NCBI RefSeq assembly: GCF_014698825.1
Contig: NZ_JACJTT010000029.1
Location: 3,797 to 67,796, forward strand
Length of the DNA: 64,000 nt
Origin: Richelia sinica FACHB-800
GTDB lineage: Bacteria > Cyanobacteriota > Cyanobacteriia > Cyanobacteriales > Nostocaceae
Direction of reading: 5' to 3'
Shown here: positions 11,502 to 64,000 of the stretch, in pieces
Layout of the letters: each line of letters starts with the position of its first letter
Numbering within the stretch: the first letter of the stretch is position 1
Made by a program: the position numbers and the translations under genes
Notes under the pieces: model-generated
What the model saw: the letters and a program-made list of their open reading frames with translations, nothing else
Told to the model about the DNA's origin: nothing
Database searches by the model: none

Positions 11502-11595
11502 TTTCATATCAGAGTTAATTAGTAGGAATAATCAATATTTTGCAATTGCCAACGACTCACTACTAATTAACTCCAAAATTTTTAATAACACAGGA

Positions 11596-12591
11596 TTAAA
11601 AACGAATTTGTTGCAAATGACTGCGGGGGTTGTAAGTGCGGATAGCCCGGAGTTTTTCATAATATTCCCGTTCTTGTTGACTAAGGTCTTTGGGTGGGAC
11701 AATTGCCACCTTTACAAATTGGTCTCCACGTCCACCTTTAGCTACAGGCCAACCCTTACCACGCAAGCGCAGAGATTGACCAGAACGAACTCCCGCAGGT
11801 AATTTGACATTCACACTGCCATCAGGGGTAGGTACATCAATGGAAGCACCTAAAGCGGCTTCATCGGGTGTGATGGGCACTTCACAGACTAAGTTATCAC
11901 CTTCGATTTGGAAGAAAGAATGGGGTTGTAGTTCTACTTTTAAATACAAATCACCTCGTTGTTGAGTCATAGGATTAAATTGACCTTTACCCCGAACCCG
12001 TAAACGAGTACCAGTTTTTGACCCTGCTGGAATGCGGACATCTAGAGTTTCGTTACCTAAACTAAAGCGTTTTTGTACCCCAGCAAAAGCCTCAGCAAAA
12101 GTTAAGGTGATAGTAGCTTCTGTATCTTGACCTGCAACACTGCTAGAATCTTGAAACCCATAATCATTAAATCCACCAAAACCACCAGGAGGTTTACCAG
12201 TGGAAGTGCGATAGGAGTACCCCTGTCTTCCACCACGAGGCGCACCACCACCAAAACGACCTAATAATTCATTGACAAAATCATCAAAACTGCCGTATTG
12301 ACTAAAGTCAAAGCCACCCATGTCAACGCCAGCACCACCAGGGAAGCCTTCTCCTACTTGTTTCCAATATTGACCGAACTGGTCATATTTTTTGCGCTTG
12401 TCTGGGTCTGACAAAACTTCGTAAGCTTCATTAACTTCTTTAAATTTTGCTTCCGCTTGCTTGTTGCCTGGGTTAACATCAGGATGATACTTACGTGCTA
12501 GTTTACGGAAGGCTTGTTTAATATCTTCTGGACTGGCAGTTTTGCTTATTCCTAAAATTGCATAATAGTCTTTAAAGTCTGTTGCAGCCAT
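11596..12591 (-). CDS. DnaJ-domain protein with DnaJ C-terminal domains, no Zn finger (CbpA-like)
   Basis: J domain [36 protein letters not shown]...[14 protein letters not shown] with HPD; Gly/Phe-rich linker; C-terminal DnaJ_C beta domains. Confidence 0.8.
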
Positions 12592-18615: not shown

Positions 18616-19467
18616 TTAAGTTGGGGTTTGAGAAATTTCTGTAATTAAATTGTCTAATTCTTGCTGCATTTTTGCCTGGACTAACTTATAGCATTCGTTA
18701 ACATAGGAGCGATCGCTTGCTGCTTCCCGTCCATACCGTTCAAAGACAATAGGTGGACAAACTCTGGTGTACATGGGTACTGGCAAAGGGATATTAGGCA
18801 AAGGGCCAATACCTAAGCCCCAAGGTAGTCCGAGATAAATTGGAAAGACTAAAGGGTCTACTCCAAATAACCAAGGCATCCCCCATTTGTGCAGTTGTTG
18901 AACAATTTTGTATAAGTCGGCCAGGATAATTAGTGTATCGTGCGCTCCCCAAGAAATCGCCGGGACAATAGGCACATTTTCCCGCAAGGCTAGTTTGATA
19001 AATCCTTGTCTGTGGGCAAAATAGATTTTGTCCCGCATCGCGTAGGGACGAAAAACATCTTCTGCACCACCTGGATAAACTAACACACTAGCGCCAGCTT
19101 TAAAAGCCGCATGAGCCATTTTCGGATGGGCTATAACAGCACCTCCTTTCATGGCTAATTCTGCCGCTTGGGGGAGAACTTCCCAGACTTTTGGGTGCAT
19201 CAAACCATAAATGGGTTTTTCTGGGCCAAAACGACGTATCCAGTCGTATAGCATCATTGATGTATCTGGAGAAGCTAACCCACCATTGTGAGACCCAACA
19301 AATAGAACTTTTTCGTCGGGGATATTTTCCCAACCGCTAGTGTGAACACGAAAATAGAAGTTATAGATAAAGCCTAAAATAGGCATCATAGCTGAAATGA
19401 ACTTTGGATCTCGTCGGTCTAAAGTCCATCCTAGTTTTTTGTTTTGGGGATGTTGAGTTGTTAACAT
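18616..19467 (-). CDS. lysophospholipid/glycerol-3-phosphate acyltransferase (PlsC-like) family protein
   Basis: HNGGLASPD (HX4D-like) and VYPGGAED blocks characteristic of PlsC-family acyltransferases; 283 aa. Confidence 0.5.
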   Translation of the reverse strand: MLTTQHPQNKKLGWTLDRRDPKFISAMMPILGFIYNFYFRVHTSGWENIPDEKVLFVGSHNGGLASPDTSMMLYDWIRRFGPEKPIYGLMHPKVWEVLPQAAELAMKGGAVIAHPKMAHAAFKAGASVLVYPGGAEDVFRPYAMRDKIYFAHRQGFIKLALRENVPIVPAISWGAHDTLIILADLYKIVQQLHKWGMPWLFGVDPLVFPIYLGLPWGLGIGPLPNIPLPVPMYTRVCPPIVFERYGREAASDRSYVNECYKLVQAKMQQELDNLITEISQTPT

Positions 19468-19669
19468 CGAGGCATTTTATCAGGATTGATCAGTATGAAA
19501 CAATCCGGTTGTTTGCAGTTTTATGTCAATAAATTAGCTAACCAGTCCTATCAATAAATGGAATTAGGACTTTTTCGGTGAATTTTGCGTTTTAGTGGCA
19601 TTTTTGCCCAACAAGTTTGATGATGGGCTAAATGATGAAGTCAGGATTACAGTGATGTAAAGTTCCTAC

Positions 19670-19891
19670 CTAATATAAAATTGTACCACTATTATTACTA
19701 TAAGCTTTTACAACTTCATTACCTTGAACACCTGCACCAAATGGATTTGATGGCTGTACATTGGGAAAGCCTTGACCCAATACATCAGCCATTTGACCTA
19801 AACTGAATGATGTTTGTCCGCCTTGAAAAATATCTTGTTCGGCTATGGATAAATCTCTTAATATCTGGGGTTTAACATTTTTTTCGTGCAT
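19670..19891 (-). CDS. small peptide with double-glycine-type leader (LSIAEQDIFQGG)
   Basis: MHEKNVKPQILRDLSIAEQDIFQGG|QTSF...; leader fits LSxxELxxIxGG except Q at -7; Gly-rich core. Confidence 0.35.
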   Translation of the reverse strand: MHEKNVKPQILRDLSIAEQDIFQGGQTSFSLGQMADVLGQGFPNVQPSNPFGAGVQGNEVVKAYSNNSGTILY

Positions 19892-20127
19892 AATAAATAT
19901 CTTCTCTGGGGTTGTTTGCTAATTCAGTAATCTATTTTAGATTTTGTCTATTATTGAGCTATACATCTGTAGATATAAAATCTGGTTATTAGTTCTTGTT
20001 TTGGTTTTTTTAACTTTTGCTCAGGGACGGTTTGGCTTATATAATATAAAGAAATATTGCTAAGATAAATGACCTTTTTGCTTATTTTACTATTTTATTA
20101 ATTGTCAATTTTCATAATCAGAGGAAA

Positions 20128-20448
20128 TTAACTATAAACTGGTAGTGGTAGGGGAATAGTAATATTGATAGCATTTTTAACGTTTGGTTTTGTTCTTGGA
20201 GATGGTTCAATCGGGTTTAAGCGAGGTAGTTTAGTAGCAGGTAAAGTGGGAGCAAAAGGAGTCATTCCATAAGCCTGATAATTTCCTGGTAGTGGTAGGC
20301 TATTGCTGGTTAATTGGGGTTGAGTATTATCAATAATATTTACAGCGATAGGTTCTGAAACATCTGTTGAACCACCCAATATATGAGCAGCAGTTTGATT
20401 ATTGAGTTCAATGAATAAATCTTCTATGTTGTTGGAAAAATTGGACAT
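20128..20448 (-). CDS. hypothetical small protein with GG motif after N-terminal helix, Pro-rich C-terminus
   Basis: MSNFSNNIEDLFIELNNQTAAHILGG|STD...; weaker match to GG-leader consensus; same strand and 236 nt from the previous gene. Confidence 0.3.
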   Translation of the reverse strand: MSNFSNNIEDLFIELNNQTAAHILGGSTDVSEPIAVNIIDNTQPQLTSNSLPLPGNYQAYGMTPFAPTLPATKLPRLNPIEPSPRTKPNVKNAINITIPLPLPVYS

Positions 20449-26497: not shown

Positions 26498-26569
26498 GGG
26501 TCGCTAACTCAACGGTAGAGTACTCGGCTTTTAACCGATTAGTTCCGGGTTCGAATCCCGGGCGACCCA
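26498..26569 (+). tRNA. tRNA-Lys (anticodon UUU)
   Basis: Cloverleaf folded by hand: acceptor GGGTCGC/GCGACCC, D-arm ACTC-AACGGTA-GAGT, anticodon loop CTTTTAA, T-arm CCGGG-TTCGAAT-CCCGG, discriminator A, no encoded CCA. Close to E. coli tRNA-Lys. Confidence 0.85.
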
Positions 26570-46622: not shown

Positions 46623-46646
46623 TACAGCATGAGGAAAAACTCCACC

Positions 46647-46937
46647 ATGTCCAACCAAACAAACTTAACCGATGCTCGTAATAACCTAGCTGACATCTGC
46701 GCTCAAGTAGTTGCAGATAGAGAAATAATGATTATTACCCGACCAGAAGGTGAAAATGTCGCCTTAATTGCTGCTGACGAATTAGAAAGTTTATTAGAAA
46801 CCACTCATTTACTACGCTCACCAAACAATGCAGCGCGTCTTTTAACAGCTTTAGAAAGAGCAAAAACTAGAACTTTAAATCCCCAAAGTATCAACGAACT
46901 ACGTCAGGAGTTGGGAATTGACACAGAAGAAGAATGA
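46647..46937 (+). CDS. yefM: type II antitoxin, Phd/YefM family
   Basis: MSNQTNLTDARNNLADICAQVVADREIMIITRPEGENVALIAADELESLLETTHLL is the canonical YefM fold sequence. GAGGA lies 10 nt upstream of ATG 46647. Confidence 0.85.
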   Translation: MSNQTNLTDARNNLADICAQVVADREIMIITRPEGENVALIAADELESLLETTHLLRSPNNAARLLTALERAKTRTLNPQSINELRQELGIDTEEE

Positions 46938-47217
46938 ACCCAAACCCCAAGAAATTAAAGTTCGGGATGCTGTCTTTCATCCAGAATTTAGGGAAGACCT
47001 TGTTTATTGGGTGGAGACAAACCGTAAAACTGCGCTCCGTGCTTTTGATTTAATTGAAGCAATTATGCGAGATCCTTTTACTGGTGTTGGTAAACCAGAA
47101 CCTCTGAAATATTTAGATTCAGATGCGTGGTCACGAAGACTTACTCAAGAACATCGAATTGTTTATCTAATTAGTGATGACAGAATTGATTTCTTACAAG
47201 CTAGATTTCATTATTGA
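46918..47217 (+). CDS. yoeB: type II toxin, YoeB/Txe family mRNA interferase
   Basis: ...LVYWVETNRKTALRAFDLIEAIMRDPFTGVGKPEPLKYLDSDAWSRRLTQEHRIVYLISDDRIDFLQARFHY aligns over its length with E. coli YoeB. Overlaps yefM by 20 nt. No ATG near the expected start; the ORF-track start is TTG at 46918. Confidence 0.8.
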   Translation: MTQKKNEPKPQEIKVRDAVFHPEFREDLVYWVETNRKTALRAFDLIEAIMRDPFTGVGKPEPLKYLDSDAWSRRLTQEHRIVYLISDDRIDFLQARFHY

Positions 47218-47302: not shown

Positions 47303-48157
47303 TCAATACACCTTAGTCCGAAAACTCCGGGCTACCATCTTGGCAGAATTATGATTTGACACCTTAGAAGATTGAGGTGTATGACGATTTTGTACCAACA
47401 CTACAGCCGCAACTGCTAACAGAAAATAACCAAAGGTTTTCTGAAGTTTTTGCGCTGGCACATATTGAGCAAAATACGCACCGGGAACTGTTCCCAAACT
47501 AGCAGCAATAATAAAGGAAAACATCAAATTCCAATCAAGGGAAACATTTCCCAGATAACCTAAAAAGCCTGTAATTGAATTGAAGATAATAATGAGTAAC
47601 GATGTTCCAATTGCCTTTTTCATAGGTACTTTTCCTAACAATACCAAAGCCGGAACGATCGCAAACCCACCACCCACACCAACTAACCCAGTTAACACCC
47701 CCACACCTAAACCTTCCGTCATTAACCACAACCAACAATACTTGCAGACTGGTTGGGGATAACCTGCCAAATCTTCCTCTGTCATCACAGACTGAGAACT
47801 ACGACGAATCATAAACACTGCTGCCAAAAACATTGTCACGGCAAACAAGGTCATTTGCACAGCGTCGGTAATAATTGGCAGGGTAGCAATTTTAGCCCCC
47901 AGAAATGCCCCCACCATCGTTGTAGAACCGAAAATCAAAGCAGTCTTAAAGCGGACATTTTTAGCTCGCCAGTGGGGTATCAAGCCGAGTATACTCACAG
48001 TACCGACAATTACCAGAGTCATAGCGATCGCAGATTTTGGTGGTACACCCATCACATAAACCAAAATCGGCAACGCTAACACCGACCCACCACCACCGAT
48101 CAAACCCAAGCTTAACCCAATACAGGCAGCCAGTAAATGACCAATCACCCACGTCAT
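47303..48157 (-). CDS. TauE/SafE-family (TSUP, DUF81) sulfite/sulfur-anion exporter
   Basis: 284 aa, 8 TM; duplicated 4-TM halves with Gly-rich GLIGGGGSVLALPIL and GLVGVGGGFAIVPAL motifs. Start ATG overlaps the rhodanese stop (ATGA). Confidence 0.85.
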   Translation of the reverse strand: MTWVIGHLLAACIGLSLGLIGGGGSVLALPILVYVMGVPPKSAIAMTLVIVGTVSILGLIPHWRAKNVRFKTALIFGSTTMVGAFLGAKIATLPIITDAVQMTLFAVTMFLAAVFMIRRSSQSVMTEEDLAGYPQPVCKYCWLWLMTEGLGVGVLTGLVGVGGGFAIVPALVLLGKVPMKKAIGTSLLIIIFNSITGFLGYLGNVSLDWNLMFSFIIAASLGTVPGAYFAQYVPAQKLQKTFGYFLLAVAAVVLVQNRHTPQSSKVSNHNSAKMVARSFRTKVY

Positions 48158-48699
48158 ACACTGCTCCGTTGATTATAAGGTAGCTTCGCTAACAACATAG
48201 CCAACATACAGGTATCTGTAATACCTGCAAACATTAAACCCGCACCCACAAAACCACTGAGAATCAAAAACCAGGGAGAAACAAAAGCACCCAGTACCGT
48301 CCCTGTAAACACCAAAGACCCTGCGACAATTTGCACCTGACGCATTAAACTAATCGGTGCATTACGGTTAATTTTCGTAGCATAACCAGCAGCTTTCCAT
48401 GCACCCAATCCCGAATCTAAATGAGTAACAGCGTTAAAACCCGCATCAAATAGCTTTTGAGCAGCCATTTTTGAGCGATTCCCAGAACGACAGTAAAGAA
48501 CCACCGTTGTATCTTCATCTTGAGGAACCTTATGCGGGTCAAACTGAGAAAGAGAAACCAATCTTGCACCAGGAATATGCTCTCCTGCATACTCACCAGG
48601 TTCTCGTACATCAATTAGCGTCACAATATCTTGCTCAAGTAACTGTTTGAGAGTTTGAGCATCAATAGTTTGCAAAGTTTTCAACCCGGAAGTAGCCAT
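48154..48699 (-). CDS. rhodanese (sulfurtransferase) domain fused to DUF2892 membrane domain (YgaP-like)
   Basis: Catalytic loop LYCRSGNRS with active-site Cys; C-terminal two TM helices with GxxxG-rich DUF2892 pattern; 181 aa. Confidence 0.85.
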   Translation of the reverse strand: MATSGLKTLQTIDAQTLKQLLEQDIVTLIDVREPGEYAGEHIPGARLVSLSQFDPHKVPQDEDTTVVLYCRSGNRSKMAAQKLFDAGFNAVTHLDSGLGAWKAAGYATKINRNAPISLMRQVQIVAGSLVFTGTVLGAFVSPWFLILSGFVGAGLMFAGITDTCMLAMLLAKLPYNQRSSV

Positions 48700-48726
48700 G
48701 AAATTCTCTCCTCAATTCTCTTGTTT

Positions 48727-48747
48727 CTCTCTGCGTCTCTGCGTGAG
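48727..48747. repeat. cluster-specific octamer repeat element (CTCTGCGT)x2-GAG, copy 1 of 4
   Basis: ctctctgcgtctctgcgtgag in the 54-nt spacer between the PDO stop and the rhodanese start. Confidence 0.6.
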
Positions 48748-48753
48748 CTAAAA

Positions 48754-49443
48754 TTAAGCAGCATTACCACAACGCTGATTAGCTGGTACTGCTTCCATAA
48801 TCTTTTTCGGATTCGGCAAATTCAGATTCGCCATTAATGCAATAAACTCATCACGGGTGCGTCCTACCAACCGGGGATTAAACTGCTTTTCTTCCCCAAT
48901 AGTGGAAACAGTCAAACCTTTATAGTCGTGACCAGGATAAACTAAAGTTTCATCAGGTAAAGTAAACAGTTTTTGGGTAATCGCATCGTACATCGCACCT
49001 GCATTCCCGCTTTGGAAGTCTGTTCTGCCACAACCACGAATCAACAGCGCATCTCCTGTGAATAGATGAGTACCATTCACCAGATAGGCATTATGGCTGT
49101 CAGTATGACCGTGAGTTTGAATAGCCTCTACTCTCATACTTCCTAATTCCAATACTTCCCCATCCTTAATAAACCTGTCTGCACAAGCAGCATGGGCGTT
49201 TTCTGGTACAACTCCCAAACAACCTGTCATTTCCCGTAATTTACCCGTTCCAGTGATATGGTCAGCGTGGATGTGGGTTTCTAAGCAATATTTCAGCGTT
49301 AGTCCTAGTTCTTTAAGTAACTTAATATCCCGTTCTACTTGTTCTAATACTGGGTCAACTAAAATCGCTTCTTTCGTCACCCTGTCAGCAATTAAATAAG
49401 TATATGTACTTGTTTCTGCATCAAATAATTGGCGAAATAACAT
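48754..49443 (-). CDS. persulfide (sulfur) dioxygenase, ETHE1-like metallo-beta-lactamase fold
   Basis: MLFRQLFDAETSTYTYLIAD N-terminus, HxHxDH motif (THIHADHITG), downstream H and D ligands, C-terminal GRTDFQ; 229 aa. Confidence 0.8.
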   Translation of the reverse strand: MLFRQLFDAETSTYTYLIADRVTKEAILVDPVLEQVERDIKLLKELGLTLKYCLETHIHADHITGTGKLREMTGCLGVVPENAHAACADRFIKDGEVLELGSMRVEAIQTHGHTDSHNAYLVNGTHLFTGDALLIRGCGRTDFQSGNAGAMYDAITQKLFTLPDETLVYPGHDYKGLTVSTIGEEKQFNPRLVGRTRDEFIALMANLNLPNPKKIMEAVPANQRCGNAA

Positions 49444-49597
49444 AATGCCTGCCTCCTGATAGATTATCTTCTTATCTTTTTGTTTATAGTATAACTATAT
49501 GGTAATAATCTTGTAATGTCTAGTGGAGAGACAGAAAAAATCCAAAAATAAACCTGCCTAAAAAATTACAAAAACCACTCAAAGTATATTGACTAAT

Positions 49598-49617
49598 ATA
49601 TAACCATATGGTTATAT
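49598..49617. promoter_or_regulatory. 20-bp perfect palindrome ATATAACCAT|ATGGTTATAT in the divergent PDO/hdr promoter region; degenerate second copy at about 49490..49507
   Basis: Read directly from sequence; second copy tataactatatggtaata shares the CATATGG core. Confidence 0.45.
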
Positions 49618-49815
49618 TAAAAACAAGTCGATTTAAATGCTGGTTAATATCAGTTTCCAGGTTCCAAGCTAGATATCAGTCACCGCGTATACCATTTTGG
49701 ATTTTGGGGAGAATATCTGCGTTCTTTCCATCTATCTCATTGCCCCTACCTTTAGACAAGGGGTCATGATTACGCATTATCAATTACCAATTACTTTGTC
49801 TATAGGGTTTTATTT

Positions 49816-50517
49816 ATGGGGCAATTATTTAACGAGCTTAAAAGAGATATTCTGTACCAGCATGGCATGAATGCCTGCTTAAATTGTGGGGTTTGCACTG
49901 CCGTTTGTCCAGCCGCAGAGTTTAATGAATATTCCCCTAGAGAAGTGATGAATCTGGTGCAGTCAGAAGATGATGAACTGATTGAAGAATTATTGAAATC
50001 CGACAAAATTTGGTATTGCGGACAATGTTTTTCCTGTAAAACCAGATGTCCACGGGGTAATAGTACAGCCGCTGTTATACTTGCTTTGCGTCGTCTTTCC
50101 ATTCGTCACGGTTACTTTGCAGAATCAGAAAAAGGCAGACAGCAATTAATCGCCAAACGGGTATTTGGGGAAAACGTCTTAAAACGTGGTTATACCTTGC
50201 TGGGAGAAAATATTACACCCTCACACTTTCCCGAACTCGGTGAAAACTGGGAATACTATTATGAACACATGGCCGAAATGCGCCAATGGTGGGACGTACC
50301 AATGAATAAGGAAAATAGCCCTGGTTCCCACCGGATGATTCCCGAAAAAGATTTAGAAGAAGTGCGAGCAATTTATCAAACCACCGGTGCCGTTTCTTTA
50401 ATGGATGCAGTGGAAAAAGGTATGGAAAAGAAACTGGGAAGTAAAGCCGAAGTAGAGAAATACTGGCAAACCTGGCTAGAAACCGGAGATAGCAGAAATT
50501 ATACCGTTCCCAATTGA
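49816..50517 (+). CDS. HdrC-like iron-sulfur protein (two 4Fe-4S ferredoxin motifs) with C-terminal extension; sHdrC1 candidate
   Basis: CLNCGVCTAVCP and CGQCFSCKTRCP give 2x CxxCxxCxxxCP; 233 aa. Confidence 0.7.
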   Translation: MGQLFNELKRDILYQHGMNACLNCGVCTAVCPAAEFNEYSPREVMNLVQSEDDELIEELLKSDKIWYCGQCFSCKTRCPRGNSTAAVILALRRLSIRHGYFAESEKGRQQLIAKRVFGENVLKRGYTLLGENITPSHFPELGENWEYYYEHMAEMRQWWDVPMNKENSPGSHRMIPEKDLEEVRAIYQTTGAVSLMDAVEKGMEKKLGSKAEVEKYWQTWLETGDSRNYTVPN

Positions 50518-50560
50518 GATTTCCCAACTTTTACACGATTTATTTAAACCACACTCTTGA

Positions 50561-50599
50561 CTCCTCTCTGCGCCTCTGCGTCTCTGCGTGAGAAAAAAA
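50561..50599. repeat. octamer repeat element CTCTGCGC-CTCTGCGT-CTCTGCGT-GAGAAAAAAA, copy 2 of 4
   Basis: Between hdrC1-like and hdrB1-like genes. The ORF-track GTG start of the next ORF lies inside the repeat. Confidence 0.6.
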
Positions 50600-50671
50600 T
50601 GTGGTTTATTTACCCGCAAGTTGCTGTATAAGCCAGACGCAATATTACAACATGAAAGGAGTAAACCAGTA

Positions 50672-51718
50672 ATGAAATTAGCAGGAAAAGCCAAAGCTTG
50701 GGAAAGACATCAAAAAGCCGTACCAACAGTAGATGAACCAGGCGGAAAAGTGTGGGGATGTTTCCGTAGTTGTTTTCTGCAAAGTGCTGCTCCTTACACA
50801 GAAGGTATCGCTTATAAAATCCTCAAAAACGACCTGGGGATGGAGTTACGAGAAGCACCAGGACATACTTCCTGTGGAGCGATCGGTTATCATGGCGATG
50901 TTTCCAACTTAGAAACCCAAATGGTGATGGCAGCGAGAAACTTTTCTGTTGCTCATCATGATTTAGGTGTAGATAATCTCTTCTCCTTTTGTGTCACTTC
51001 CTTTGCCAACTACACAGAAATGATCAAACTGTGGGAAGAAGAACCAGAATTAAGAGAATACACAGAAAAAACCTTAAAAGCAACCACGGGAAGGGATTTG
51101 TGGATACCTCACGTTTCTGGTGGTAGACCTTCTGTAGTTCATGCGTCCGATGTCTTTTTTGCCAATCGTCATAAACTAGCTGCCAAAGCAAAGTATAGCC
51201 TCAAAGGTATTAAAGCCACAGACCACGTTGGTTGTCACTATGCCAAAATTTTCCCCGAAGAAGCAATGGGAGGGGCTGAGTTTCCCCAGGTATTAGTGGG
51301 GATGCTAGAAGCCTTTGGTGCAGAGATTGTTGATTATCCCGAAAGAAGACATTGCTGTGGAATGGGTTTTAGACAATGTGCTTTCCCAGAAAATCGAGAC
51401 TACACCGCCGGTTCTGTCTATAAAAAATTAAAGAGTTTAACAGAAAGCCATCCTGACTGCAAACTCATTCTTACCAACTGTCCCGGATGTACAGTATTCC
51501 TCGATGCTGAACAAGGAACAATCAAGGATGTCTTGGAAGAAGAGTTTAACGTCAGTATCCTTGACTACGCCCAACTGACAGGGTTGCTGTTAGGTTATGA
51601 CCCCTTCAAGGATTGTGGTTTGAACGCCAAAGCCGTAGCTATAGAACCGTTGCTAGATATGATTGGCATTCCCTACGACAAATCCAAAACTGCGGAAGAA
51701 CGGAGACGGCCATTTTAA
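50672..51718 (+). CDS. HdrB/HdrD-like protein with cysteine-rich CCG domains; sHdrB1 candidate
   Basis: C-terminal CCG domain CHYAKIF...RRHCCGMGFRQCAF and degenerate N-terminal copy (TSCGAIGYHGD). Start moved to ATG 50672, preceded by GAAAGGAG. Confidence 0.7.
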   Translation: MKLAGKAKAWERHQKAVPTVDEPGGKVWGCFRSCFLQSAAPYTEGIAYKILKNDLGMELREAPGHTSCGAIGYHGDVSNLETQMVMAARNFSVAHHDLGVDNLFSFCVTSFANYTEMIKLWEEEPELREYTEKTLKATTGRDLWIPHVSGGRPSVVHASDVFFANRHKLAAKAKYSLKGIKATDHVGCHYAKIFPEEAMGGAEFPQVLVGMLEAFGAEIVDYPERRHCCGMGFRQCAFPENRDYTAGSVYKKLKSLTESHPDCKLILTNCPGCTVFLDAEQGTIKDVLEEEFNVSILDYAQLTGLLLGYDPFKDCGLNAKAVAIEPLLDMIGIPYDKSKTAEERRRPF

Positions 51719-51809
51719 GAAAGTAGGAGGCAGGGAAACTCCTTCTAACAGACTTCCAACAAGTAAATTATCCAATCTTGTGGGAGTGGCTCTCTAGCCC
51801 GTCCGAGTT

Positions 51810-51839
51810 TAAGGGCAGGCAAGATGCCTACCCCACAAG
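51810..51839. repeat. 30-nt near-palindromic motif AAGGGCAGGCAAGATGCCTACCCCACAAGA (copy A), nested in a larger stem cttgtggg...cccacaag
   Basis: The reverse complement of 59305..59334 (after hcp) matches at 25 of 30 positions. Confidence 0.5.
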
Positions 51840-51886
51840 AATTAATTGAATATTTTTGCTCAACAACGTAAGTAAGGATAAAAACT

Positions 51887-52921
51887 ATGAATAAAAGTGT
51901 AGTAGTAATAGGTGGCGGTGTTGCAGGGATGGCTGCTGCTGGTAAACTCAGAGACTTAGGTCATGATGTAGTTCTCATTGAAAAAGAATCAGAACTAGGC
52001 GGTCACGTCAAAAACTGGTATAAGGTATTTCCTGATTTTACCGATGCTTCAGAAATAATTGCCCAGTTGAAAGGTGAACTACATGGAATTAGAATCTTAA
52101 AAAATACAACCGTGACTAAAATTGAAGGTTCAGCACCCGACTTTCAGGTAACAACATCTAGCGGTGAAAAATTGGATGCAGCAGCAATTTTGGTCGCCAC
52201 AGGATTTAGACATTTTGATGCTGCCTTTAAAGAAGAATATGGATATGGCATCTACGATAACTCTATCACTTCCGTAGAACTAGATGCCATGCTCAAGTAT
52301 CAAACTGTAAAAACCGCCGCAGGTAAAATTCCTAAAAAGTTAGCTATTGTCCACTGTGTCGGGTCACGGGATCAAAAGGTAAATAATAATTACTGTTCCA
52401 GAGTTTGTTGTACTAATGCCATCAAAGTAGCCATAGAAATTAAACAACAAATTCCCGATTGTGAAATTTATTGTCTTTATATGGATATTCGGGTATTTGG
52501 TCGCGGTTATGAGGAACTGTACCGCACCTCTCAAGAAAAGTATGGAGTGCAGTTTATTCGCGGTCGGTTGTCAGAAGCGAATGAGAAGCCGGATAGTAGT
52601 TTATTGTTGCGGGTGGAAGATACTTTAATCGGTAAACCGATGCGGTTGACGGTGGATATGTTGGTGTTAATGGTGGGGATGGAGGGAAATTCGGATTTAT
52701 CAGAAGTTGCGGGGCTAAAAGTGGGATGCGATCGCTTTTACACTACTGCTCATCAACAATACTCTAATAATGCTTCTCCTAGATCGGGAATTTTTCTGGC
52801 GGGTACAGCTACTGGTCCGAAGGCTATTGTTGAATCTATCACTGATGGTAGGTCTGCTGCGGCGGAAGTTGCTGCTTTTGTTGGTAGTGCTAACTGTGTT
52901 TATGCTTGCGCTATTAATTGA
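51887..52921 (+). CDS. HdrA-like FAD-dependent iron-sulfur flavoprotein, short 344-aa form; sHdrA candidate
   Basis: N-terminal VVVIGGGVAGMAAAGKL dinucleotide motif, 4-Cys cluster segment CVGSRDQKVNNNYCSRVCCTNAIK, C-terminal GIFLAGTATGP. Confidence 0.8.
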   Translation: MNKSVVVIGGGVAGMAAAGKLRDLGHDVVLIEKESELGGHVKNWYKVFPDFTDASEIIAQLKGELHGIRILKNTTVTKIEGSAPDFQVTTSSGEKLDAAAILVATGFRHFDAAFKEEYGYGIYDNSITSVELDAMLKYQTVKTAAGKIPKKLAIVHCVGSRDQKVNNNYCSRVCCTNAIKVAIEIKQQIPDCEIYCLYMDIRVFGRGYEELYRTSQEKYGVQFIRGRLSEANEKPDSSLLLRVEDTLIGKPMRLTVDMLVLMVGMEGNSDLSEVAGLKVGCDRFYTTAHQQYSNNASPRSGIFLAGTATGPKAIVESITDGRSAAAEVAAFVGSANCVYACAIN

Positions 52922-52923
52922 AG

Positions 52924-52965
52924 AAAACGAACCGCAGAGGCGCAGAGAACGCACAGAAAAGAGAG
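52924..52965. repeat. octamer repeat element, copy 3 of 4 (inverted orientation, more degenerate)
   Basis: The reverse complement reads ttctgtgcgttctctgcgcctctgcggttcg; lies between hdrA-like and hdrC2. Confidence 0.5.
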
Positions 52966-53045
52966 TTTGAGAGGGTTCTTGCGTGAGTCCTGAGATTAAT
53001 AAGAGGAATGAGGGGTTTTCGCATCATTTCAGTGAGGGTAAGGAA

Positions 53046-53627
53046 ATGGCAGCAAAAAAATGTTTTTTTGGCATTAAAACAGACCGTCAGGTTGATGGGG
53101 ATAAGATGAACCGTCTGTTTTTGGATCAGGTTTTGGCGGAGGGTGGGGAAAATGCGGCTATTGCTGCTTGTATGCAGTGTGGCACTTGTAGCGGCGGTTG
53201 TACTAATGCAGATTTGATGGATCTTTTGCCGAGAAGTTTGGTGTTGATGGTGCAACGGGGGGAATGGGAGAAGGTGTTAAACAGTAATAGTCTGTGGTTA
53301 TGTACTTCTTGCCAAATTTGTACTTCTCGTTGTCCCCGTGGTGTGCAACCTGCGGATGTGATTGAGGCTGTGAAAGCGATCGCTATTCGTCAAGGTATCA
53401 ATAATGATTCTACCCGGTTTAATCAAATATTTGTGGAGTTAATCAAGAAAAGAGGCATCCTCTTTGAACCAGAACTGATGCAGAAATATGGCGGTATTGA
53501 AGCCATGTTAGCACAGGTAAAATTAGGTATGAAATTAGCCTTCAAAGGTAAATTATCCCCCTTACCAGCAAAAGTCCAAGAACCAGAAAAGTTTAATCAA
53601 GCATTAACAAAGGCAGAGCAAAAATGA
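53046..53627 (+). CDS. heterodisulfide reductase subunit C-like (sHdrC2 candidate)
   Basis: CMQCGTCSGGC and CTSCQICTSRCP motifs; start at internal ATG 53046, preceded by GGGTAAGGAA. Confidence 0.8.
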   Translation: MAAKKCFFGIKTDRQVDGDKMNRLFLDQVLAEGGENAAIAACMQCGTCSGGCTNADLMDLLPRSLVLMVQRGEWEKVLNSNSLWLCTSCQICTSRCPRGVQPADVIEAVKAIAIRQGINNDSTRFNQIFVELIKKRGILFEPELMQKYGGIEAMLAQVKLGMKLAFKGKLSPLPAKVQEPEKFNQALTKAEQK

Positions 53628-54496
53628 AATATTCTTACTATCCCGGATGTAGTCTGCATAGCACTGCAAAAGAGTTTGATGTATCCACCAAAGTGGTAAT
53701 GCAAGAATTGGGATTTGAACTGCAAGAACTTCAGGACTGGTCTTGTTGTGGTGGTTCTGTCGCAGGTGGTGTTTCTCATGATGTAGGTATGGCGTTAGCT
53801 GCCAGAAATGTCGTTTTAGCACAACAACAAAATCAGGATTTGTTAGCAGCTTGTTCTGGTTGTTATAACAAATCAGCCAAAGCAGCTAAAGCCTTAGAAA
53901 ATAACCAAGAACGGCAAAAAATTACTGCTATTCTTGGAGATATGGGAATATCTGTATCTGAAAACAACATCAGAGTTAGGAATGTTGTAGATGTTCTCGC
54001 GAATGATATAGATATTTCCACCCGGATTAAAAAACCTCTACATGGTTTAAAAGTAGCTTGTTATTATGGTTGTCTATTAACTCGACCAGAAAATATCACC
54101 GGTTGGGACTCTCCTGTTTTTCCCATGTCTATGGATAGATTAGCGCAAACTTGCGGGGCTGAAGTAGTTGATTTCCGATCTAAAACTAAATGCTGTGGCG
54201 GTCCGATTTTAGTCCCAAAAGAAGATGTTGCCTTTGAACTCACCAAGCGATTATTAGATGAAGCCAAATCTCTAGAAGCAGATTGTATTGTTTTAGCTTG
54301 TCCCTTATGTTCTACCAACCTAGAACTGAGACAGCCAGATATTGAGAAAAAATATAATGTTTCCTATTCTCTGCCTATTCTCTACATCACAGAACTAATC
54401 GGACTAGCACTCGGAATTAAACCTAGAAAACTAGGTTTAGATAAACATATTGTTTCCACCCAACCTGTTTTATCTAAATTAAAAACCTGCTCCTAA
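53624..54496 (+). CDS. heterodisulfide reductase subunit B-like, two CCG domains (sHdrB2 candidate)
   Basis: MKYSYYPGCSL...DWSCCGGSVAG and ACYYGCLL...KCCGGPI...CPLCSTN; ATGA overlap with the upstream gene. Confidence 0.85.
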   Translation: MKYSYYPGCSLHSTAKEFDVSTKVVMQELGFELQELQDWSCCGGSVAGGVSHDVGMALAARNVVLAQQQNQDLLAACSGCYNKSAKAAKALENNQERQKITAILGDMGISVSENNIRVRNVVDVLANDIDISTRIKKPLHGLKVACYYGCLLTRPENITGWDSPVFPMSMDRLAQTCGAEVVDFRSKTKCCGGPILVPKEDVAFELTKRLLDEAKSLEADCIVLACPLCSTNLELRQPDIEKKYNVSYSLPILYITELIGLALGIKPRKLGLDKHIVSTQPVLSKLKTCS

Positions 54497-54542
54497 CTCC
54501 TCTCTTACTCTCTGCGCCTCTGCGCCTCTGCGTGAGAAAAAA
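54497..54542. repeat. octamer repeat element CTCTGCGC-CTCTGCGC-CTCTGCGT-GAGAAAAAA, copy 4 of 4
   Basis: Directly after the hdrB2 stop; near-identical to copy 2 including the ctcctctct lead-in and the A-run. Confidence 0.6.
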
Positions 54543-54633
54543 TCCGTAAATTTCTCCATCACAGGAATCATATTTATGGACATCTATGAGCTATAAGTTT
54601 TAGATAGCAATAGTGAAGTGTGGGATTAAACCT

Positions 54634-55647
54634 TTACTTGGAAGGAATTTTCAGCGTACCAATATTGTATATTCCCTTGGCATCAGATGGAATTGCAAAG
54701 GGAATCAAGGCTGGAGGGTTGGTAAATAAGCGAATTTCATAGCGTCCTGGTTTTAATCCCGAAGTAGCAAACTTACCTGCTCGATTGGTGAATATAGTAA
54801 CTGGTTGCCAATTGCGATCGCCCACAGCAACAATCTGTGCTGATTGTAAAGAAATAGGTTCACCATCACTATTCAATAATACTCCTCGCAAGAAAACTGT
54901 GGCATCTGTTCCCACTCGCACCACTGTACCACTGCTATAAGTGGGTAAAATTTTGATAGCACGATTTCCTAAATCCATTCCCACAGGTAAATTTGGCGCA
55001 TCAATGATCACAGTAGAAATATTATAAGGACTTAAATTGGGGACTACACCAAATCCTAAATTATCAATGCGGGTGGTATAGCCACCGGAACTAGGATTAA
55101 TACCGATTTCTTGACCTCTCACGCTATCTTTTGGAATCAATAAAGCAAAACTATTATTAAGAGAACGTGACCAGACAAAGTTACCATAATTGGTGGCGAA
55201 AATTCTCTCTAAACCAGCAAGTTGTTGATGCAAATCTGCTTGTAAATAACTGCCTAAAGTGAACTGATTGGTTATACATAAACGATGGGATAAAGTCAAA
55301 ATCGGTTGAGTAAAATCATAGGTGCGATTACCTGAAATATCAGCAGATGGAACACCCAAACTATAGGCGAATTGCTGTACTCCAGGTGCTAATAAATCCC
55401 CATCAACCGGATTAGAAAAATTTAATCTTTGCACACGACCCACATCATCTTTAATCACTAATTCTACATCATTAGTACCCCCATTCAAAGGTAAATTGCG
55501 GATATCTTGCCGTCCTGCTCGTAACTGTAAAGTCCGTTCTAATCTACCATTAACTAATACATCAACTAATGAATCAGTTTCTAAGAAAAATTCAAATTGG
55601 CTAATGGGTCGAGTGACTAAATGCAGATCCAAAATCAATGGTAGCAA
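54634..55647 (-). pseudogene. beta-rich secreted-protein-like ORF without canonical start or signal peptide (possible truncated fimbrial-usher/CarboxypepD_reg-like fragment)
   Basis: 337 aa; the ORF opens right after an in-frame TAA with only TTG available as start; N-terminus MLPLILDLHLVTRP is not a signal peptide; C-terminal PGRYEIRLF beta-sandwich-like. Confidence 0.35.
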
Positions 55648-56226
55648 GGGGACTAACGATTAAGCTAGAAGCAATTACAAAAGGACGGAAAAACATCATA
55701 TTTTAATGTTTATTTTTGTGAACTATATACCTAAAATTAATAATTATTGGAATATTTAACCATAGCATAAATATTGAATTTATGACTGAATTTTATCAGT
55801 AGAAATACTATCAAGTTCAAAAGCCAGAACTTTGATTTGTGTACGTGATATACCCTATTTTAATGTTTTGAGTTGACAGCAGTTTTCATCTAGTGAGACC
55901 ACAGTAGAGAAGTTGCATACAACGACTGTAAAAGGGTTTTAAACTTTGTTTTGTGGTTCATTTACCTGAAAATTGCTGTCAGTTTATCAAGTAGGAGTAT
56001 CATCAGTACATTCTCACGAAGATTACGCAAAATACTGACAATCTTCACCATTATTAATGCCAAATATACTACTATCTCATTTGATAGTTATATGCTAAAA
56101 TAGTTTAATAAGCAAAATTTGCGAGATATTCAGTCGCAGATGACCAGGAGAGCAGAATTAAGTAAACTTCTTAGCTGTTGTGGAAGTCCTCTGTGGCACT
56201 AGCTATATTTATTTCATGGGGGTACT

Positions 56227-57501
56227 ATGGCTCGAATTATTGTAATTGGTGCAGGAATTGGGGGATTACCCACATCCTATGAAATGCGGCGTATTTTGCC
56301 ACCAGAACATCAAATTACACTGATTTCCAATACCCCTAAATTTACATTTATTCCTTCTCTTCCTTGGGTAGGTTTAGGTTTAAAATCACTTGAGCATATT
56401 CAGTTAGATGTAGAAAAACTCGTAAAAAATAGAGGTATTGAATGGGTTTTAGGAGGAGTTAGCCAAATTTTGCCAGAGTCAAAGCAAGTGATTGTAGGAG
56501 AGAGAGTAATTTCCTATGATTATGCGGTGATTGCTACAGGTGCAGAGTTAGCTTTAGATGCAGTACCAGGTCTACAAGAAGAAGTTGGATATGTGCAATC
56601 GGTGTGTAATCCTGCTCACGCACTCAAAGCTGCTACGGCTTGGCAAAAGTTTCTCCAAAATCCGGGTCCTTTGGTAGTGGGAGCAATACCAGGTGCAGGT
56701 TGTTTTGGCCCTGCTTACGAGTTTGCGTTACTAGCAGATTGGCTGTTACGACGATACGGGTTGAGAAATCAAGTCCCCATTACTTTTGTCACCCCAGAAC
56801 CTTATGTGGGACATTTGGGAATTAGCGGTATGGCCAATTCTGCGGAATTGGTAAAAAAATTACTTTACCAAAGAGAAATTGAAGTATTTGAAAATGCAGC
56901 TATTAGTCAAATTGAATCAGACAAAATTTTGCTGGCTGATGGTTGCACTCTACCTTATGCTTACGCTATGCTATTACCGCCATTTCGGGGAGCGCGTTTT
57001 TTACGAGAAGCACCTGATTTAAGTGATAAAAAGGGCTTTTTACCTGTACTACCTACTTATCAACATCCTCAATTTCCCTCAATTTATAGTGTGGGAGTAA
57101 CTACTCAACTCAAACCACCAGAAATCACTCCCATTCCCATTGGTGTGCCAAAAACAGGACAAATGACGGAAGCTATGGGTATGGCTGTGGCTCATAATAT
57201 CGGTGTAGAGTTGGGCGTAATTTCTGCTCCTTTAGTGACTCCTACTTTGGAAGCACTTTGTTTAGCGGATTTTGGTGATACAGGAATTGCCTTTTTAGCA
57301 GACCAAGTTTTACCCAATCCTATCACCGGAAAACGCAGACGAGCAGTGGCCATGGAAGGACGCTGGGTCAGTTGGAGTAAAACAGTCTTTGAAAAGTTCT
57401 TTCTGACGAAAATGCGTTGTGGGGTTGCAGTTCCTTGGTTTGAACATTGGGGTTTGGAAGTTCTGGGATTATCACTGGTACAACCGCTTAGCAAAATTTA
57501 A
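56227..57501 (+). CDS. sqr: sulfide:quinone oxidoreductase (type I SQR, flavoprotein disulfide reductase family)
   Basis: MARIIVIGAGIGGLPTSYEMRR FAD motif and conserved Cys (GAGCFGPAYEF, LCLADFGDTG); 424 aa; resembles cyanobacterial SQRs. Confidence 0.9.
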   Translation: MARIIVIGAGIGGLPTSYEMRRILPPEHQITLISNTPKFTFIPSLPWVGLGLKSLEHIQLDVEKLVKNRGIEWVLGGVSQILPESKQVIVGERVISYDYAVIATGAELALDAVPGLQEEVGYVQSVCNPAHALKAATAWQKFLQNPGPLVVGAIPGAGCFGPAYEFALLADWLLRRYGLRNQVPITFVTPEPYVGHLGISGMANSAELVKKLLYQREIEVFENAAISQIESDKILLADGCTLPYAYAMLLPPFRGARFLREAPDLSDKKGFLPVLPTYQHPQFPSIYSVGVTTQLKPPEITPIPIGVPKTGQMTEAMGMAVAHNIGVELGVISAPLVTPTLEALCLADFGDTGIAFLADQVLPNPITGKRRRAVAMEGRWVSWSKTVFEKFFLTKMRCGVAVPWFEHWGLEVLGLSLVQPLSKI

Positions 57502-57629
57502 ACCTGAAAATTCATTCACCTTGTCGGAACAACAGCTTTACCAAACTTCACAACCACAATTGACTTAAGTCAAGGATTTCCTCAACTGAAATCAATACGC
57601 TGGAAGCATAGAGATTTGAGGAAGGAACT

Positions 57630-59264
57630 ATGTTCTGCAACCAGTGTGAACAAACTACCCGTGGAGATGTGTGTCATCAGTGGGGTGCGTGCGGTAAAAG
57701 TCCTGAAGTTGATGCTTTACAAGATTTGCTAGTGCATTGTTTACGGGGGCTTTCTCAAGTAGCACTACAGGCCAAATCTCTGGGAATTGGTACCCGCAGC
57801 AGTGATGAATTTACCTGTGAAATGCTGTTTGCAACATTGACGAACGTCAATTTTACTACTGCTGATTTTATGACTTTTGTGAATCGAGCGATCGCTCTGC
57901 GCGAAAGTTTGAAGTTGCAAATTCAAGCTACAGGTCACAAGGTGATTGAATCCGCTATTACTAGTTTTTTACCCGCAAGTGACCAAAGCCAACAAATTCA
58001 GCAAGGTAAAGATTTAGAATTTGCCTTCATTAGTCAATCTGCTCAAAATGTTGATATTTTCTCTCTTAAACTCACAGTTTTATATGGACTCAAGGGCGTT
58101 GCAGCTTACGCTTTCCATGCCTTAGAACTTAATCAACATGATGAAGGCTTGTATAAATTCTGTCATGAAGTTTTAGCAACATTAGATACTCAAGATAAAA
58201 CCCTGGAAGATTGGTTAAATTTAGCCCTGAAGGTCGGGGAAATGAACCTCAAAGCCATGGAACTGCTGGATGCTGGTAATACGGAAACCTTTGGTCATCC
58301 AACTCCTACAGTTGTACCCCTGGGGCAAACAGTTGGTAAAGCTATTCTCGTTTCTGGACATGATTTATTAGCTTTGAAAGCTATTCTCGCAGCTACCGCA
58401 GGAACAGATATTAAAGTTTACACTCACGGTGAATTACTACCAGCATATGGTTATCCCCAACTAAAACAGGCATATCCCCACCTTTACGGTCATTACGGGA
58501 CAGCATGGCAAAATCAAACCCATGAGTTTGAACATTTCCCTGGTGCGATCGCTATGACTACTAATTGTCTCATGCCTCCCCATGAAGGATACAAAGACCG
58601 AGTATTTACTTTGGGACCTGTGGGTTATCCTGGGTTACGACATGTGAGTATTAGCGATGTTTCTCCTATTATTAATAAAGCCTTAGAATTACCAGGATTT
58701 ACTGAAGCCCAAGATAAAGGCACTGTAACCACAGGCTTTGCGAGAAATGCCGTTTTAGGAGTAGCGGATGCTGTGATTGATGCTGTCAAAGCAGGTAAGA
58801 TTCGGCACTTTTTCTTAGTGGGTGGTTGTGATGGTGCAAAACCGGGACGGAATTATTACACGGATTTAGTGGAACAAATGCCAGAAGATTGTGTGGTATT
58901 AACTTTAGGCTGTGGTAAATTCCGTTTCTTTGATAAAAATCTGGGTGATATTGGTGGCATTCCCCGCTTGTTGGATGTGGGACAATGTAACGATGCTTAC
59001 TCTGCTATTCAAATTGCTGTAGCTTTAGCTAATGCCTTTGGTGTTAATGTCAATCAATTGCCTTTGTCAATGGTACTCTCTTGGTATGAACAAAAAGCGA
59101 TCGCTGTTTTGTTGACTCTCCTGTATTTAGGTATCCAAAATATCCGCATTGGCCCCACCCTTCCAGCTTTCCTGTCAGCTAATGTTGTCAAGCTACTATC
59201 CGAAACCTACAATCTTCAACTCATCACCACTCCAGAACAAGATTTAGCAGCAACCCTTGGATAG
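57630..59264 (+). CDS. hcp: hybrid cluster protein / hydroxylamine reductase
   Basis: N-terminal MFCNQCEQTTRGDVCHQWGACGK Cys cluster and hybrid-cluster ligand regions (CLMPPHEGY, GGCDGAKPGRNYY, GQCNDAYSA); 544 aa. Confidence 0.92.
   Translation: MFCNQCEQTTRGDVCHQWGACGKSPEVDALQDLLVHCLRGLSQVALQAKSLGIGTRSSDEFTCEMLFATLTNVNFTTADFMTFVNRAIALRESLKLQIQATGHKVIESAITSFLPASDQSQQIQQGKDLEFAFISQSAQNVDIFSLKLTVLYGLKGVAAYAFHALELNQHDEGLYKFCHEVLATLDTQDKTLEDWLNLALKVGEMNLKAMELLDAGNTETFGHPTPTVVPLGQTVGKAILVSGHDLLALKAILAATAGTDIKVYTHGELLPAYGYPQLKQAYPHLYGHYGTAWQNQTHEFEHFPGAIAMTTNCLMPPHEGYKDRVFTLGPVGYPGLRHVSISDVSPIINKALELPGFTEAQDKGTVTTGFARNAVLGVADAVIDAVKAGKIRHFFLVGGCDGAKPGRNYYTDLVEQMPEDCVVLTLGCGKFRFFDKNLGDIGGIPRLLDVGQCNDAYSAIQIAVALANAFGVNVNQLPLSMVLSWYEQKAIAVLLTLLYLGIQNIRIGPTLPAFLSANVVKLLSETYNLQLITTPEQDLAATLG

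Positions 59265-63912: not shown

Positions 63913-64000
<88 letters not shown>

Follow-up and report, generated by a model that had tools for sequence, protein, structure and literature searches.

A conserved cyanobacterial variant of the sHdr gene architecture, without LbpA, in a predicted sulfide regulon

Type I sHdr complexes, known from Hyphomicrobium denitrificans, Acidithiobacillus and Aquifex, combine five Hdr-like subunits with LbpA, an essential partner that serves as substrate carrier and electron acceptor; the HdrA of methanogens works reductively. A heterotrophic pathway of sulfide:quinone oxidoreductase (SQR), persulfide dioxygenase (PDO), rhodanese and TauE is familiar from Cupriavidus, Myxococcus and mitochondrial ETHE1. 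Cyanobacteria exposed to sulfide, as in microbial mats, sulfidic springs and analogues of the Proterozoic ocean, are to our knowledge credited with SQR alone, which yields two electrons per sulfide and leaves sulfur behind, and we know of no enzyme assigned to the anaerobic formation of thiosulfate by some cyanobacterial strains. Here we describe a 64,000-nt stretch of contig NZ_JACJTT010000029.1 from Richelia sinica FACHB-800 (the window; coordinates are counted from its start), in which a five-gene cluster, hdrC1-B1-A-C2-B2, accompanies genes for all four proteins of the heterotrophic pathway. The complex encoded in the window and in other cyanobacteria very probably has a type I sHdr-like build and forms a separate lineage without LbpA and sHdrH, which sits beside sulfide genes and shares a motif with them. 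The description that suits it best is a variant of the sHdr architecture, conserved in cyanobacteria and devoid of LbpA, inside a predicted sulfide regulon. Taken singly, the window's SQR, PDO, rhodanese and TauE are typical of their families; unlike those of the heterotrophic pathway, their genes are physically linked to an Hdr-like complex and share an operator-like motif with it, an arrangement of which the literature we searched holds no description. The five-gene cluster itself was already known from genome papers, which note it in passing ('hdrB-C-A-B-C' and 'hdrA2B2C2' in cyanobacteria).

A genome-collection scan recovered 53 cyanobacterial-type hdr loci, and neighbour counts are given over 52 of these. 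HdrA relatives at 72-84% identity occur in many cyanobacteria of all major orders, and the order C1-B1-A-C2-B2 is held in 47-50 of 51 cyanobacterial loci. More than 50 cyanobacterial species carry a cluster of this conserved lineage, with its genes in invariant order; within the phylum the cluster is patchy and not universal, a point on which the initial annotation had asked for a synteny survey. At least one sulfide or sulfane gene (SQR, PDO, rhodanese, TauE or DUF442) lies within 10 kb in 40 of the 52 loci, across orders, and an SQR of type I or II is found in the flanks of 31. By our own estimate, a single-copy gene in a genome of 5-8 Mb would fall within 10 kb by chance in well under 1% of cases. 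The pairing of the Hdr-like and SQR-PDO modules had initially been called unusual and uncharacterized; it is not unusual, given this recurrence and the earlier genome papers, while its function is indeed still uncharacterized.

Unbiased clustering of flanking open reading frames (ORFs) gave as recurrent neighbours rhodaneses (18 loci), type I SQR (16), a type II-like SQR directly upstream of hdrC1 (16), PDO (16), YgaP-TM/DUF2892 proteins (13), SulP (10), TauE (9), DUF442 (8), NifX-like PF02579 proteins (8), psbA (6), an ArsR-type regulator (5) and, directly downstream of hdrB2, a PetC-like Rieske protein (21). In a divergent locus from a metagenome-assembled genome (MAG; L055, 66% identity), a PDO-rhodanese fusion, a rhodanese-YgaP gene, TauE, a hypothetical gene and C1B1AC2B2 form a tight co-directional array, and in the Sodalinema-group loci L019-L021 type II sqr lies ~270-310 bp upstream of hdrC1. 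Two contigs labelled Actinomycetota and Sphingobacterium thalpophilum (L016 and L049) also hold cyanobacterial-type hdr clusters, at 76-80% identity, and are probably mis-binned cyanobacterial contigs.

As the sHdr reference we used locus L060. Its HdrA shares 99% identity with PDB entry 6TJR, the crystallized H. denitrificans sHdrA, and its genes run dsrE3C-C1-B1-A-H-C2-B2-hyp-lbpA ... tusA. Every window subunit found its own counterpart as best match in L060: HdrC1 matched sHdrC1 (30% identity, E 1e-39), HdrB1 sHdrB1 (29%, E 7e-29), HdrA sHdrA (34%), HdrC2 sHdrC2 (29%, E 6e-16) and HdrB2 sHdrB2 (34%). The profile-match pattern of the window subunits likewise equals that of genuine sHdr subunits. 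The likeness to type I sHdr thus covers five homologous subunits in the same order and a short HdrA (~345 aa) with FAD and one [4Fe-4S] motif, which aligns over its full length with 6TJR (residues 3-328 against 2-336, E 7e-65). It extends to the HdrB subunits: HdrB2 has both CCG sites intact, and in HdrB1 Ser stands in for two ligands of the first CCG site, which correspond to Cys41 and Cys81 at the N-terminal non-cubane cluster site of M. thermolithotrophicus HdrB. Aligned to the HdrB structure sequence, 52 of 52 cyanobacterial HdrB1 proteins and Hyphomicrobium sHdrB1 have this Ser/Ser pair, and Ser replacements (Ser/Ser or Thr/Ser) also occur in archaeal and Bacteroidales relatives. Genes for sulfur transferases and for an SqrR/sHdrR-like regulator of the ArsR type accompany both systems in the genome.

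The differences from type I sHdr are equally consistent. Cyanobacterial loci have no sHdrH between hdrA and hdrC2 and no LbpA, DsrE3, TusA, sLpl(AB) or LipS1/S2; their HdrB1 has 348 aa against 466 aa in sHdrB1 and keeps Cys231 where sHdrB1 has Asp; and their partners are SQR, PDO, rhodanese-YgaP and TauE instead of Sox, TusA and DsrE. Searches for sHdrH, LbpA, DsrE3C and TusA gave no match at E<=1 in the 2351 ORFs of the window and the 53 loci, which agrees with what the initial annotation had said of these partners in the window and extends it to the other loci, and for sHdrH neither tblastn nor phmmer found a match in the window or any locus. A 282-aa sHdrH would have no room between hdrA and hdrC2, which lie 61 bp apart in the window and, at the median of 49 loci, ~85 bp apart. 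A survey with Dahl laboratory hidden Markov models (Tanabe et al. 2023, S4 Table) counts 0 sHdr, 0 LbpA, 0 LipS1/S2 and 1220 GcvH in Cyanobacteria, with GcvH in 89% of cyanobacterial genomes.

We built a neighbour-joining tree of the HdrA core (Kimura distances, 100 bootstraps), in which only the alphaproteobacterial sHdrA of the Hyphomicrobium group was labelled as such. Short HdrAs, sHdrA included, form one clade (79/100); within it, cyanobacterial HdrAs form a clade of their own (100/100) that tends to join Altiarchaeales-type sequences (63/100), and cyanobacterial HdrA was sister to Hyphomicrobium sHdrA, the single named sHdrA reference group, in 0/100 replicates. Without a lipoate system or sHdrH, and never sister to Hyphomicrobium sHdrA, the cyanobacterial complex therefore appears as a separate lineage with sHdr type I architecture. 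The sHdr signature initially read from the gene order and the short HdrA accordingly stands as architecture, now together with the best matches and the B1 Ser/Ser pair, and fails as membership. Type II sHdr (shdrC1B1AHB3-etfAB-emo) differs further, since C2 and B2 of the window are separate genes and not a fused B3; ETF- or EMO-like genes were not among the recurrent neighbour families inspected and named, and no direct search for ETF or EMO was run.

Outside cyanobacteria, the closest HdrA relatives (50-66% identity) are found in uncultured anaerobes (Altiarchaeales-type, Bacteroidales and others), in clusters that likewise have a short HdrA. These have the same C1-B1-A module and B1 signature, and differ in the order hdrC1-B1-A-fdx-fdx-fused HdrCB, with a fused HdrC/B protein of 610-630 aa and small ferredoxins, and in the absence of SQR and TauE; one of them (L058) has a metallo-beta-lactamase (MBL)-fold gene upstream of hdrC1. 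Some share with 8 cyanobacterial loci a linked NifX/NifB-like PF02579 (Nitro_FeMo-Co) gene, seen next to hdrC1-B1-A at L056:8172-8543 and L057:159-530 and, among cyanobacteria, at L047:6431-6877 for example; its product may help to insert the cluster at the unusual site of HdrB1. In archaeal locus L063, whose HdrA is 58% identical, an LbpA-like GcvH homologue with the lipoyl-lysine motif VETGKWVG (11547-11963) directly follows the fused HdrCB gene, so that a lipoate link exists in the sister lineage and not in cyanobacteria.

Methanogen HdrABC (5ODC, 8RVV, 9SFI) shares the HdrB2 and HdrC folds. HdrB2 matches 5ODC_B at E 1e-47, and none of the 51 cyanobacterial sequences has lost any of the ten Cys that bind the non-cubane clusters; the thioredoxin-reductase core of HdrA is 42-46% identical, with an identical CxGSRD..YCSxxCC motif (CVGSRD..YCSRVCC in the window). 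Similarity of HdrA is confined to that core (9SFI_A residues 143-235 and 321-563, E 1e-67): window HdrA, at 344 against ~650 aa, is without the N-terminal, inserted and C-terminal ferredoxin domains. The window also encodes two different B/C pairs instead of one and no Mvh or Fdh partner, and R. sinica makes no CoM-S-S-CoB. We therefore rejected a methanogen-type Hdr on domain architecture, in agreement with the first reading of the locus. That reading had also proposed a check against GlcF and SdhE. Matches of HdrB/C to GlcF were negligible (E 1e-3 to 2e-5), and HdrB2 scored 199 bits on the SdhE profile (cut-off 500) against 201 bits on the HdrB profile, the pattern shown by genuine sHdrB2 (156 and 148 bits, respectively). 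No SdhA or GlcD was found near hdr among the recurrent neighbour families of the loci, and an SdhE or GlcF identity was rejected on profile scores and gene context.

The divergent pdo/hdrC1 spacer of the window holds two copies of a palindrome with the consensus TATAAC-N6-GTTATA, which is conserved in an alignment of four Nostocales intergenic regions; the window as a whole has 3 matches against 0.08 expected. In most cyanobacterial loci the hdrC1-proximal copy lies ~55-70 bp upstream of hdrC1. A strict pattern, TATNAC-N6-RTWATA, has 30 matches in the 946 kb of loci, 21 of them at most 400 bp upstream of hdrC1 or pdo. We then scored upstream regions with a position weight matrix (PWM) trained on the hdrC1 sites alone (match, score >=14). 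Matches preceded hdrC1 in 25/49 loci, pdo in 10/14, type I sqr in 4/16, type II sqr in 4/16, petC-like genes in 5/20, psbA in 3/5 and the ArsR gene in 1-2 of 5, against 0 inside the hdr operon and 1.3% in random 300-bp windows. The sqr of the window has a half-site only.

The same motif before hdrC1, pdo and sometimes sqr, petC-like, psbA and the ArsR gene thus predicts one sulfide/persulfide regulon, which would comprise hdr, pdo and, in some genomes, sqr, the petC-like gene, psbA and the gene for the SqrR-like ArsR protein. Among solved structures, that protein is closest to SqrR, a persulfide sensor (6O8K, E 2e-8), and it is a candidate repressor, since its own start codon is preceded by the motif at a distance of 31-39 bp.

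Several observations touch the members of this predicted regulon. The ArsR-family regulator has 131 aa with Cys in helix 2 and near the C-terminus; it was seen in L006, L013, L017 and L031 (for example, L017:13993-14388) and is absent from the window. Also absent from the window is the PetC-like Rieske protein (TM_PetC plus Rieske, ~177 aa), encoded ~300 bp downstream of hdrB2 in the loci that have it (for example, L047:5863-6396); its position and, in 5 of 20 cases, its motif suggest that the sulfide regulon includes an alternative Rieske subunit for cytochrome b6f. The psbA (D1) copies within 10 kb of hdr, in loci including L004, L007, L031 and L038, may encode a sulfide- or anoxia-specific D1 isoform. 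An Oscillatoriales MAG (L025) has a second, isolated hdrB1 (19212-20282, 85% identical) ~9 kb downstream of its complete cluster, with an operator-like motif upstream. In the window, the hdrC1 leader (49620-49815) is ~140 bp longer than in three other Nostocales, and the motif stands at -208 from hdrC1 against about -66 to -87 in those genomes; the extra length looks like an insertion, and an Rfam search of the long leader found no RNA family.

All eleven listed ORFs of the gene set were recovered at their coordinates in the ORF table of the window (Table 1). Domain scans and structure matches agree with the identities first given to tauE, rhodanese-YgaP, pdo, the five hdr genes, type I sqr and hcp, and the 4-nt ATGA overlap between the rhodanese stop and the tauE start is seen in the sequence. 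That sqr follows hdr is right in so far as a type I sqr lies downstream; it does so not directly but after a 1.7-kb gap holding a minus-strand usher-like ORF. The description as an island fared less well: G+C content (GC) is 0.41-0.43 across the gene set, similar to the flanks, so there is no compositional sign of one, and a recent foreign island was rejected. Nor does hcp pair with the two modules. It is widespread in filamentous cyanobacteria, none was found within 10 kb of hdr among the other cyanobacterial hdr loci, and the PWM scan found no operator-like motif upstream of it in the window; we rejected hcp as a module member, and it is probably a neighbour, not part of the system.

Table 1. 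Features of the hdr region in the window.
Feature	Coordinates	Strand	Description
tauE	47303-48157	-	TauE/SafE-family anion exporter, 284 aa; PF01925, E 5e-51; last gene of pdo-rhd-tauE operon
rhd	48154-48699	-	Rhodanese with YgaP-like membrane anchor, 181 aa; PF00581, E 1.5e-20; PF11127, E 1e-7
pdo	48754-49443	-	ETHE1-type (type I) PDO, 229 aa; MBL fold; similarity to solved PDOs
Imperfect palindrome TATAACTATATGGTAATA	49490-49507		Operator-like; 55 bp upstream of pdo
Perfect 18-bp palindrome TATAACCATATGGTTATA	49599-49616		Operator-like; overlaps hdrC1 promoter-like site TTGACT-18-TATATT (49589-49618)
hdrC1	49816-50517	+	Ferredoxin-like subunit, 233 aa; Fer4_8, NF041779 HdrC; two CxxCxxCxxxCP motifs
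hdrB1	50672-51718	+	CCG-domain subunit, 348 aa; start set by orthologues (listed ORF begins at GTG 50588)
hdrA	51887-52921	+	Short FAD/[4Fe-4S] flavoprotein, 344 aa; CxGSRD...C...CC; without ferredoxin or N-terminal domains
hdrC2	52983-53627	+	Second ferredoxin-like subunit, 214 aa as listed; Fer4, TIGR03290
hdrB2	53624-54496	+	Canonical HdrB, 290 aa; two complete CCG motifs; 4-nt overlap with hdrC2
Usher-like ORF	54634-55647	-	337 aa; between hdrB2 and sqr
sqr	56227-57501	+	Type I SQR, 424 aa; similarity to type I SQR structures
hcp	57630-59264	+	Hybrid cluster protein/hydroxylamine reductase, 544 aa; Prismane family, E 6e-160

The sulfide proteins resemble characterized enzymes. PDO has full-length similarity to characterized PDOs, with M. 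xanthus PDO (4YSB, E 1e-85) and human ETHE1 (4CHL, E 8e-71) as best solved relatives and Arabidopsis ETHE1 (2GCU) at E 3e-66. SQR matches the type I structures 3SZ0 and 3HYV (A. ferrooxidans and A. aeolicus) at E ~2e-92, against E 1e-29 for type V and E 8e-17 for type II, and has Cys at the positions aligned to the catalytic Cys128, Cys160 and Cys356. The rhodanese has a single domain with the active-site loop CRSGNRS. Two hdr starts call for comment. HdrB1 orthologues have 348 aa and begin MK(L/V) in 45 of 52 cases, so the hdrB1 start is taken as ATG 50672 and the listed GTG as over-extended; the spurious GTG extension arises from tandem 8-mers in the hdrC1-hdrB1 spacer. The hdrC2 orthologues have a median length of 198 aa, and the true start of hdrC2 may be ATG 53046.

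We consider the locus best explained, mechanism included, as a sulfide-response gene set with an Hdr-like complex that oxidizes sulfane sulfur, with a probability of somewhat under one half (about 0.45). HdrC1-B1-A-C2-B2 would form a soluble five-subunit complex at the core of this set. SQR would oxidize sulfide and reduce plastoquinone; the sulfane sulfur, bound to a thiol carrier as the persulfide of glutathione or of rhodanese, would be turned into sulfite by PDO when O2 is present. Without O2, and with photosystem II blocked by sulfide, the Hdr-like complex would oxidize sulfane sulfur to sulfite at HdrB1, in parallel to PDO, and pass four electrons from HdrC1 through the HdrA FAD, HdrC2 and HdrB2 to a disulfide or quinone-type acceptor. 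Thiosulfate would arise as rhodanese joins sulfite to sulfane sulfur, and export of either sulfite or thiosulfate would fall to TauE. The direction and substrate, oxidation of SQR-derived sulfane sulfur, are proposed tentatively by analogy; O2-independent oxidation to sulfite is the best-supported option because of the homology to sHdr and the gene context. Sodalinema (formerly Microcoleus chthonoplastes strain 11) is cited, in PMC12694226, as converting sulfide to thiosulfate and not to sulfur (De Wit & van Gemerden). Thiosulfate formation by this strain fits a model of O2-independent oxidation. Rabenstein and colleagues are said to have found, in 1995, that sulfite is an intermediate of this oxidation. 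A fuller version holds that the complex is an LbpA-independent sHdr relative for O2-free sulfane oxidation and the missing enzyme by which mat cyanobacteria turn sulfide into thiosulfate anaerobically in the light, and that an SqrR-like repressor acting on TATAAC-N6-GTTATA controls hdr, pdo, sqr, Rieske and psbA; that this whole version holds seems doubtful to us.

A conserved Hdr-like complex beside sqr and pdo, with a common motif, is a concrete candidate for oxidation beyond elemental sulfur without O2. If sulfane oxidation is true, the electron yield of cyanobacterial anoxygenic photosynthesis changes, with the electrons gained per sulfide doubled, the sHdr family gains a lipoate-independent form, and the cluster becomes a gene marker for metagenomic work on the sulfur cycle.

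Several points weigh against sulfane oxidation. Identity to the sHdr subunits is just 29-34%, and the HdrA core shares 42-46% identity with methanogen HdrA but only 36% with sHdrA. LbpA is absent from the loci and, according to the survey, from cyanobacteria, and therefore the analogy to sHdr is without its mechanistic keystone; sHdrH, DsrE3 and TusA are absent as well. The electron acceptor is inferred by class only, as disulfide or quinone-type, and co-regulation with an O2-dependent PDO is by itself no indication of an anaerobic role. No sulfur gene lies near the cluster in 12 of 52 loci, although 8 of those 12 are short or truncated contigs, and full-text literature searches returned no functional study of the cyanobacterial hdr cluster.

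The main rival is a reductive role, which we think unlikely. The complex would then be a persulfide, polysulfide or disulfide reductase that takes electrons from ferredoxin or NAD(P)H, supplied by dark fermentation or photosystem I, and passes them via HdrA to HdrB2 and HdrB1. With glutathione persulfide, polysulfide or mixed disulfide as targets, it would remove excess sulfane sulfur made by SQR or support dark anaerobic sulfur reduction. The complete set of ten ligands of the methanogen disulfide-reducing site in HdrB2, its match to methanogen HdrB and the greater nearness of the HdrA core to methanogens all suit this role, and the absence of LbpA takes away the substrate carrier of oxidative sHdr. 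Co-location and a common motif with SQR and rhodanese would suit sulfane removal equally well. Oscillatoria limnetica and Microcoleus chthonoplastes reduce sulfur in the dark, which counts for a reductase; we know of no enzyme assigned to this activity, and a reductive complex would supply one. The Ser/Ser B1-type subunit, however, is common to oxidative sHdr and absent from methanogen HdrB, the tight operon of L055 with PDO and TauE points to sulfite or thiosulfate as products, and no electron-input module (hydrogenase, Flx or Mvh) appears among the recurrent neighbours of the cluster.

A non-sulfur enzyme is more improbable still. Here the complex would be a redox-balancing or electron-bifurcating module that connects, for example, ferredoxin and NAD(P)H with a thiol/disulfide or quinone couple. 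Sulfide and anoxia would induce it along with a psbA copy and an alternative Rieske protein, and only the common regulon would place it next to sulfide genes. Such a role could account for the motif before petC-like and psbA genes, for the PetC-like gene after hdrB2 in 21 loci, for the recurrent NifX-like genes and for a relative, L062, that sits among nif genes. It is harder to reconcile with the association with SQR, PDO, rhodanese, TauE and DUF442, which in some loci extends to single operons, and with the specific homology to the sHdr B1 module; and although HdrB2 scores equally on the quinone-linked SdhE profile and on HdrB, genuine sHdrB2 does the same.

Least probable, and very improbable in our view, is a true sHdr orthologue that works as in Hyphomicrobium by means of housekeeping GcvH or an unrecognized lipoyl protein and generic sulfurtransferases encoded elsewhere: the shared subunit order, subunit-wise best matches and B1 signature, the frequency of GcvH in cyanobacterial genomes and the LbpA-like gene directly downstream in archaeal L063 are outweighed by the absence of LbpA, sHdrH, DsrE3 and TusA from the 53 loci and of LbpA and LipS1/S2 from Cyanobacteria in the survey, by an hdrA-hdrC2 gap too small for sHdrH, by the 0/100 sister grouping and by published tests, described in PMC6067878, in which LbpA and GcvH were not interchangeable.

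The remaining window is ordinary chromosome of uniform GC overall, with glgC and genes for a glycogen debranching enzyme, pyruvate dehydrogenase E1, a Mur ligase and scpA, as well as a tRNA gene at 26498-26569 (+) and a 16S rRNA gene that begins 85 bases before the window ends (63916-64000, +). The usher-like ORF between hdrB2 and sqr, probably what is left of a truncated gene, matches only the C-terminal part of fimbrial ushers (Usher profile 460-546 of 549) and also has a CarboxypepD_reg domain. Tandem 8-mers (CCTCTGCG/TCTCTGCG) occupy the hdrC1-hdrB1, hdrA-hdrC2 and post-hdrB2 spacers (50542-50588, 52933-52948 and 54478-54532, respectively) and make these gaps longer than in other genomes. 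Adjoining tauE is a pair of overlapping genes for a YefM (Phd) antitoxin and a YoeB toxin (46629-47217, +), which borders a stretch at 44-47 kb where GC drops to 0.30; a DUF5677 gene lies in the same stretch.

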